Shown here piece by piece: positions 9,591 to 10,431 of a stretch of DNA of 64,000 nucleotides. Source of the DNA: Escherichia coli (GTDB lineage: Bacteria > Pseudomonadota > Gammaproteobacteria > Enterobacterales > Enterobacteriaceae); the NCBI RefSeq assembly GCF_030013205.1, contig NZ_CP122648.1, one strand, 5' to 3'. Each line of letters opens with the position of its first letter. Position 1 is the stretch's first letter. Both the position numbers and the translations under genes were made by a program. The notes under the pieces were generated by a model. The model saw only the letters and a program-made list of their open reading frames with translations, did no database searches and was not told the DNA's origin.

Positions 9591-10118
9591 TTTTTATTTC
9601 TCTTTCAGGTGAATAGATCGTTTTTACTATCTTACCCCGCACGAATCATCGTTAAAATCAGATTATAGTGTAGGAATAATTCGTTTTTTACGAACCATTG
9701 AAGGATTTGTGCCATCAGCGATGAGATGAGTTTTTGACGGCTGTAAGCGCTCACGAGTGACCCTAAGCCCTGATAATCATAGCTTAAGGTCAGGATTTCT
9801 GAGGGATTAATTAGGAAAAGTAATAATTAATTTGTTGTCAGTCGGCGATGTTTGTTAGGCCAATACTTCAAAAATAATCCAGTTTGTCGTCAATAATTGC
9901 GATGAAGAGATAAATTAAAGTTAAATAATTAAATCATTAAAAAATTACGCCATAAAAATGCGAGGCGTCTTCAGGATTAGAATCGATAAAACAGAATGGG
10001 TTAAAGAGAGCGATATAATAGCGGCGGGTGCTTGAGGCTGTCTGTCTCAGGCATTAGCTGAACGGCAGATAGAGAAAAGCCCCGAGTGATATTTTACCAT
10101 CAACCCGAGGCCCCCTAT

Positions 10119-10328
10119 ATGCAGAACACATGTAGAGTGCCTCTTACTGACCGTAAGGTCAAGGAGAAGAGAGCAATGAAGCAGCATAAGGCGATGATTG
10201 TCGCCCTGATCGTCATCTGTATCACCGCCGTAGTGGCGGCGCTGGTAACGAGAAAAGACCTCTGTGAGGTTCACATCCGAACTGGCCAGACGGAGGTTGC
10301 TGTTTTCACGGCTTACGAATCCGAGTAA
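10119..10328 (+). CDS. mokC: MokC reading frame overlapping hokC (translational coupling element of hok/sok type I TA)
   Basis: ORF MQNTCRVPLTDRKVKEKRAMKQHK... ending at the same stop as hokC. Confidence 0.6.
   Translation: MQNTCRVPLTDRKVKEKRAMKQHKAMIVALIVICITAVVAALVTRKDLCEVHIRTGQTEVAVFTAYESE
10176..10328 (+). CDS. hokC: type I toxin HokC (Gef)
   Basis: 50-aa MKQHKAMIVALIVICITAVVAALVTRKDLCEVHIRTGQTEVAVFTAYESE, single TM Hok toxin. Confidence 0.9.
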   Translation: MKQHKAMIVALIVICITAVVAALVTRKDLCEVHIRTGQTEVAVFTAYESE

Positions 10329-10431
10329 GAGCAACGGCGGGGAGTGATCCCCGCCACTTTACAGGTGCTCGCATATCTTCAACGCACCCTATTTTTACCC
10401 TGGCCTGCCCACAGGCAGGCTTTTGGGGAGG

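Follow-up and report, generated by a model that had tools for sequence, protein, structure and literature searches.

In Escherichia coli K-12 the type I toxin gene hokC has an IS186 element immediately beside it, and a chromosome that appears to be free of this element at the same place raises the question of whether its hokC locus is complete and, if it is, whether it may function as the well-known hok/sok systems do. The locus considered here occupies positions 9591-10431 of the window, that is, of the whole 64,000-nucleotide stretch of E. coli DNA that was analysed, and these limits are exactly those of the nhaA-dnaJ intergenic region. The window is in the opposite orientation to the K-12 map; its first 22.4 kb has 99.98% identity to the swine isolate K_EC180, and across 9591-10431 the two sequences are 100% identical. 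The genes and coding signals are as follows.

8424-9590, minus strand: nhaA
10119-10328, plus strand: mokC, 69 aa, in the same frame as hokC and overlapping it, from the listing of ORFs
10161-10166, plus strand: AAGGAG, the Shine-Dalgarno sequence of hokC
10176-10328, plus strand: hokC, the toxin gene, 50 aa, encoding MKQHKAMIVALIVICITAVVAALVTRKDLCEVHIRTGQTEVAVFTAYESE
10314-10317, plus strand: TACG motif at the Tyr47 codon of hokC (GCUUACGAAUC), read from the sequence
10432-11562, minus strand: dnaJ

A preliminary description of this DNA had reported a full 50 aa toxin with an overlapping mokC and a distance of about 100 bp to the end of dnaJ. Both statements are confirmed: the two frames lie on the plus strand at 10176-10328 and 10119-10328, and 103 bp separate the hokC stop (10328) from the dnaJ stop codon (10432). 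HokC matches the Pfam family PF01848 (HOK_GEF) over residues 6-47 with 85.5 bits (cut-off 22), and the NCBIfam models of the Hok family match it with scores under their curated cut-offs. The hokC coding DNA is identical throughout to that of K-12, and the protein accession WP_000809168.1 is common to K_EC180 and K-12. The extent and position of mokC are those of K-12 b0018, codon 2 being CAG (Q) in the window and CTG (L) in K-12. Two further ORFs, at 10047-10334 on the minus strand and 10344-10634 on the plus strand, overlap real genes and were dismissed as chance ORFs. In most genomes RefSeq/PGAP gives the 50 aa HokC coding sequence the name 'mokC: type I toxin-antitoxin system toxin MokC', and the 69 aa mokC frame and sokC are annotated only in the curated K-12 record. 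A-to-I editing by TadA, which recodes Tyr to Cys, has been described for hokC at the conserved Tyr within a TACG motif (PMC5630033, PMC12214031); recoding of a TadA-edited Tyr codon is reported for hokC, hokD and hokE, and the TACG motif is also conserved in R1 hok.

Several other features of the window were recorded. By transfer from K_EC180, the region ~997-7421 between rpsT and nhaR contains espX1 (frameshifted) and a four-gene chaperone-usher fimbrial cluster; both are absent from K-12, homology to which ends at 7284, beside an IS1 and the remnant of a truncated fimbrial gene. An Rfam match to the tpke11 sRNA (69.6 bits) lies on the minus strand at 11563-11640 in the dnaK-dnaJ spacer, as in K-12, and four tandem matches to the Rfam family naRNA4 (CssrE, a REP-derived nucleoid-associated RNA), 101 nt apart, lie on the minus strand at 55403-55784.

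The statement in the preliminary description that K-12 carries IS186 just downstream of hokC proved correct: in NC_000913.3, IS186A (15387-16731) lies between dnaJ and hokC (16751-16903). In the alignment of K-12 with the window, the terminal repeat of IS186 comes after ...GGCGGGGAGTGATCCC, and the 12 bp target duplication GGGAGTGATCCC corresponds to 10340-10351, so that the K-12 insertion maps after position 10351, 23 nt beyond the hokC stop and inside a GC-rich hairpin described below. In the window the alignment to K-12 is continuous over this site and the target occurs once, and a search for the IS186 terminal repeat across all 64 kb found none; the earlier claim of a hokC free of IS186 interruption is thus upheld, and the K-12-type disrupted allele, which would carry an IS186 end, is not what the window holds. 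From the promoter region (9985) to the point of insertion, window and K-12 differ by three substitutions only. The K-12 hokC (gef)/sokC (sof) locus (b4412, b0018, b4413) resembles the present one closely, its Rfam score being essentially the same, and it departs from it at the 3' end, where the 1.3 kb IS186A splits the hairpin and moves the dcb-like segment, the fbi element and the terminator 1.3 kb off, none of which applies to the window. According to two later papers (PMC3562002, bioRxiv 10.1101/2025.08.07.668861), IS186 on the 3' side of gef/hokC in K-12 is believed to abolish both fbi and normal processing. Papers citing Pedersen & Gerdes (1999) list hokA, hokC and hokE of K-12 as IS-disrupted, and they describe K-12 hokC as still transcribed and antisense-regulated despite IS186.

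The sequence GGGGAGTGATCCCC (10339-10352) is the sole G4-N3-6-C4 site in the 64 kb window. SaiSree and co-workers are said to have given, in 2001, (G)>=4 N3-6 (C)>=4 as the target consensus of IS186. The hairpin targets of hokC and of its paralogue hokE, a toxin gene next to entD, fit this preference, for the homologous 3' hairpin of hokE, GGGGAGTAATCCCC, is also an IS186 target, with the duplication GGGAGTAATCCC. The hokE hairpin is occupied by IS186 in BL21-AI (1731-1745 and 3082-3096 of its locus sequence), and hokE carries IS186 in K-12 too, whereas the hokC hairpin of the window is empty.

The mRNA elements of the locus were placed by homology to plasmid R1 hok/sok and by folding, as follows.

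10014-10019, plus strand: TATAAT, putative -10 box of the hokC/mokC mRNA, read from the sequence
10026-10424, plus strand: predicted full-length hokC mRNA, ~400 nt, from +1 through the U-tract that follows the terminator-like hairpin
10026-10037, plus strand: 5'-terminal tac element, predicted to pair with fbi (full-length RNA) or with 10077-10083 (trimmed RNA)
10107-10143, plus strand: antisense target (sokT) hairpin, predicted in the trimmed fold and also a helix of the Rfam consensus
10403-10424, plus strand: terminator-like hairpin GCCUGCC-CACA-GGCAGGC followed by UUUU, from sequence and fold

The TATAAT hexamer (10014-10019) stands 7 nt 5' of the putative +1 at 10026; the corresponding -35 is poor (ACAGAA, 9991-9996). 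Across seven diverse strains the hexamer is invariant, while the sequence directly upstream varies. The 5' end of the mRNA, GGGUGCUUGAGGCU, is homologous to that of R1 hok mRNA, GGCGCUUGAGGCU. The Rfam family RF01794 matches 10026-10178 on the plus strand over the full model (1-157) with 116.9 bits (gathering score 59), the scores for K-12 hokC and for R1-type plasmid hok being 118.3 and 87.2 bits, and through this match the conserved leader structure, with the tac stem, the target hairpin and the hok Shine-Dalgarno hairpin, is found in the window. Although entitled 'sok antitoxin', RF01794 covers the hok leader from the mRNA +1 to the hok AUG, on the strand opposite to the curated sokC ncRNA; because it matches the hokC mRNA strand, annotation of Sok by RF01794 gives the wrong strand and the wrong extent. 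The sokT hairpin includes the mokC Shine-Dalgarno sequence GAGG (10107-10110) and the mokC AUG (10119), and its loop is complementary to the 5' tail of SokC. Folding of the 404 nt RNA 10026-10429 gives a dG of -172.5 kcal/mol, with z = -7.05 against shuffles. The terminator-like hairpin and the dnaJ stop adjoin each other back-to-back, and K-12 has kept this hairpin between IS186 and dnaJ. A scan for consensus promoters and terminators flagged none of the hokC promoter, the SokC promoter and the 3' hairpin, and returned only a chance-level number of sites, the terminator hairpin being passed over because its T-run is of 4 bases only; placement of the elements consequently relies on homology and folding. 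A match of the minus strand at 10296-10422 to another Rfam family, the Pseudomonas rpsL leader, was set aside as due to chance (17.6 bits, gathering score 70, E = 0.81).

On the other strand, the antisense RNA and its promoter were located as follows.

10127 to 10069, minus strand: SokC, 59 nt, transferred by alignment from the curated K-12 ncRNA sokC (16952-17010)
10162 to 10134, minus strand: putative SokC promoter, with -35 TTGACC (10162 to 10157), a 17 nt spacer, -10 CACTCT (10139 to 10134) and +1 G at 10127

The SokC region differs from K-12 at 2 nt. The RNA is predicted to have a single-stranded 9 nt 5' tail, GUUCUGCAU, and beyond it a terminator hairpin with a U-tract (dG -23.1 kcal/mol, z = -3.9). 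The -10 hexamer, CACTCT, is a weak match to consensus, and the promoter lies inside mokC, overlaps the hokC Shine-Dalgarno region and has its -35 at a position homologous to that of R1 sok. The locus thus appears, from its sequence, to encode in cis an antisense RNA over the mok start, with a promoter and a terminator of its own. The preliminary description had expected Sok and the promoters within 9600-10118, which is partly right: SokC (10127 to 10069) and its promoter (10162 to 10134) are not wholly inside that interval.

Beyond the hokC stop, three elements bear on whether the mRNA could fold back on itself.

10336-10355, plus strand: GC hairpin GGCGGGGA-GUGA-UCCCCGCC, from the predicted fold, starting 7 nt 3' of the hokC stop
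10357-10376, plus strand: dcb-like downstream complementary segment, the predicted partner of the mokC start region (10117-10140) when the mRNA is full-length
10377-10389, plus strand: fbi element CUUCAACGCACCC, predicted to pair with 10026-10037

The GC hairpin is homologous in position to the hairpin that ends the 361 nt processed hok mRNA of R1 and is likely to be the 3' end-protecting hairpin of a processed hokC mRNA; the name 'dcb-like' for 10357-10376 is borrowed by analogy from the R1 element. The 3' fold-back region had been described as intact, and so it is: fbi is in place at 10377-10389, where R1 has its own fbi, CUGAAGCGCC, the two strands of the pairing having changed to match, and it is predicted to pair with the 5' end (10026-10037) through 12 bp with one bulge, the pair probability being 0.94-1.0 in the full-length RNA. 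Positions 10378-10390 are invariant in seven strains. The energy of the 5'-fbi duplex is only modestly unusual, being equalled or beaten in 184 of 5000 shuffles of the 3' UTR (3.7%, p ~0.04), and on account of this modest significance it carries no weight as stand-alone evidence.

The predicted structure changes when the RNA is shortened in silico at 10360, a cut just beyond the GC hairpin that was chosen as the equivalent of the 361 nt processed R1 mRNA, which ends just beyond its own hairpin. In the full-length fold the pairing of 10357-10376 replaces the target hairpin; after the cut the 5' end moves to 10077-10083 to give the tac stem, with a probability of ~0.75-0.79, and the target hairpin 10107-10143 forms. 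Both the tac stem and the target hairpin of the trimmed RNA are helices in the Rfam consensus structure. As a control, full-length R1 hok mRNA folded with the same 5'-fbi closure, and its 361 nt form was predicted to have local 5' hairpins and no tac stem. Compensatory changes were sought among E. coli alleles and none was found, the mRNA being too conserved; one G-U to A-U change was seen at 10040, and strain 2013C-4225 has an uncompensated G to A change at 10030 (mRNA position 5).

Every element of the cassette is thus present, in its expected position and conserved, and the mRNA has a predicted conformational switch. The proposed alignment to R1 hok/sok and K-12 hokC placed all of the R1-type regulatory parts, sok, fbi and tac among them, and these fold as expected; all of the features by which the hok/sok family is defined at the level of sequence are found. 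We are therefore highly confident that the region is an intact, IS-free version of the chromosomal type I toxin-antitoxin locus hokC/mokC/sokC (formerly called gef/sof) in its usual place between nhaA and dnaJ, that this is the ancestral and majority form, and that the K-12 allele was derived from it by IS186.

By homology with R1 hok/sok, such a locus would work in the following way. Transcription from a promoter whose -10 is consensus and whose -35 is poor would yield an mRNA of ~400 nt, locked by the pairing of 10026-10037 with fbi (10377-10389) and of the mokC start region with 10357-10376, and inaccessible in this state to ribosomes and to SokC. Slow 3' exonucleolytic trimming as far as the GC hairpin (10336-10355) would remove fbi, whereupon the 5' end would pair with 10077-10083 as the tac stem, and at 10107-10143 the target hairpin would appear. 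Short-lived SokC (10127 to 10069) would then bind the hairpin loop, blocking translation of mokC and the coupled translation of hokC and leading to cleavage of the mRNA; once SokC was depleted, MokC and then HokC would be translated, and HokC would depolarise the inner membrane. The ends of the transcript, its processing, the instability of SokC, the coupling of translation and the toxicity enter this scheme from homology and from the literature, in which over-expression of the HokC peptide is toxic (bioRxiv 10.1101/2025.08.07.668861).

The uninterrupted state is not unusual. Of 5426 complete E. coli genomes examined with a 151 nt probe over the insertion site, 3814 (~70%) have the uninterrupted junction, which was seen in such diverse strains as MS10711 (B2), O157:H7, CFT073 and IAI39; the literature has, moreover, described the locus since 1999, both as it occurs IS-free in wild isolates and as IS186 disrupts it in K-12. 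In most of the other ~30% of genomes this site is occupied by IS186, which may lie in either orientation. The K-12-type junction occurs in at most 846 genomes and the opposite-orientation junction, at the same nucleotide, in at most 953, both numbers being upper bounds because hokE-IS186 junctions cross-match; the occurrence of both orientations at one site implies at least two independent insertions. That IS186 was once present in the window and was lost by precise excision, the intact state being secondary, is extremely improbable. Precise excision of IS186 has been seen at the lon-promoter hot spot (PMC3861542), and the hokC site is a recurrent target of the element, yet there is a single copy of GGGAGTGATCCC with no footprint and no IS186 end in the window, and ancestral absence is the simpler explanation of a form that is found in the majority of genomes and in diverse strains.

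The ancestral form is also strongly conserved. The 325 nt core of the mRNA (10026-10350) has at least 99% identity to the window in 4481 of 5418 genomes (83%) and never less than 95%, whereas the adjoining 325 nt of dnaJ reaches at least 99% in 271 of 5424 (5%). The core of five diverse strains has 2-6 differences in 364 positions, compared with 13-21 in 150 third codon positions of dnaJ, and no synonymous change in hokC was seen across seven diverse strains. What variation there is lies mainly 5' of the -10 box and in the stretch separating fbi from the terminal hairpin. To judge from these comparisons, the pattern indicates that the whole hokC RNA, and not the peptide alone, is under constraint through purifying selection. 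Conservation of this kind might instead reflect other overlapping functions, such as a terminator of the dnaKJ operon or upstream regulation of nhaA, with no working toxin-antitoxin module. The hairpin at 10403-10420 does abut the dnaJ stop and remains with dnaJ in K-12, and the region from 9591 to ~9990 is upstream of nhaA; but the conserved block is the hokC mRNA itself, from +1 to fbi, and the variable parts are the stretch that separates fbi from the hairpin and the one that precedes the -10 box. B2 strains argue in the same direction. These strains, among them the uropathogenic B2-like isolate MS10711, have genes for a sulfatase and for an ompK-like outer-membrane protein directly upstream of hokC, and in spite of these other genes on the nhaA side they keep the hokC block from 9909, the point at which homology of MS10711 to the window begins and the left edge of the conserved block. 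We regard this explanation as highly improbable and retain an intact toxin-antitoxin locus as the object of the conservation.

Some genomes have altered the locus by routes other than IS186 alone. Strain Eco889 has a nonsense change in hokC codon 3 (CAG to TAG; window-equivalent 10182), and O157:H7 hokC has Ala6Val (window-equivalent 10192). In PCN061 the locus is doubly disrupted, by IS150 in the leader (3516-4990 of its locus sequence), after window position ~10105 and inside the SokC/target region, and by IS186 downstream. A similar break was noted in EC-129 (window-equivalent ~10101), and for Eco889 the annotation gives a shorter 'Hok/Gef family protein', a name that appears in further genomes too.

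Whether an intact locus is a working one is a separate matter. The preliminary description had reasoned that the locus, being intact, might be functional; its premise is well supported, and its conclusion needs qualification, for the IS-free hokC of strain ECOR24 is reported to give neither post-segregational killing nor activation by rifampicin (bioRxiv 10.1101/2025.08.07.668861), so that intact architecture is no guarantee of R1-like behaviour. One might suppose that the locus is structurally intact but physiologically silent, a SokC-repressed relic or a 'domesticated' cassette with no phenotype relative to the K-12 allele. The behaviour reported for IS-free chromosomal loci, including that of ECOR24, would be in keeping with this, as would the tolerance of IS186 at the site in ~30% of complete genomes and the occurrence of IS150 in the leader or of the codon 3 nonsense change in some, which suggests that loss is not strongly deleterious. 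A relic should drift, however, and the core is instead at least 99% identical in 83% of genomes (5% for dnaJ), with hokC free of synonymous change in the seven diverse strains. Silence is accordingly a possible reading, though one that we find somewhat doubtful. Extreme conservation of sequence points to selection on the intact locus and makes some function plausible. It is tempting to speculate further, though we consider it rather unlikely, that an uninterrupted allele under strong purifying selection, disabled at least twice by IS186, serves the host under certain conditions, is costly in some lineages and acts in a way that killing and rifampicin assays missed; were this so, abortive infection of phage, stress-induced dormancy and anti-addiction would be candidates.

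The value of these observations lies mainly in annotation: the strain carries a complete regulatory cassette and would be a better background than K-12 for the study of chromosomal hok function. The population figures (70% intact, two orientations of IS186 at one hairpin and a core more conserved than dnaJ) also help to frame the question of what chromosomal hok loci do.

Among known systems, the closest to the locus described here is that of ECOR24, in which an IS-free hokC was characterised by Pedersen & Gerdes (1999, Mol Microbiol 32:1090), as related in PMC3562002 and bioRxiv 10.1101/2025.08.07.668861. As described there, it has the same locus and architecture, with hokC, mokC, sokC and an fbi-containing 3' end and without IS186. 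The hokC transcript of ~330 nt reported for it (PMC3562002) agrees with the trimmed species of ~335 nt predicted here. The comparison with R1 hok/sok was made with an identical Hok on the IncFII plasmid NZ_CP128973.1. R1 is plasmid-borne and mediates post-segregational killing, whereas chromosomal hokC reportedly does not. Both systems match RF01794 and have the same order of elements, namely the 5' tac, the mok start, the hok Shine-Dalgarno sequence and AUG, a GC hairpin after the stop, fbi and a terminal hairpin. The Hok protein of R1 has diverged (52 aa, compared with 50 aa for HokC), the hokC leader is 18 nt shorter than that of R1, and the 5' end and fbi differ in sequence between R1 and hokC in a mutually compensating manner.
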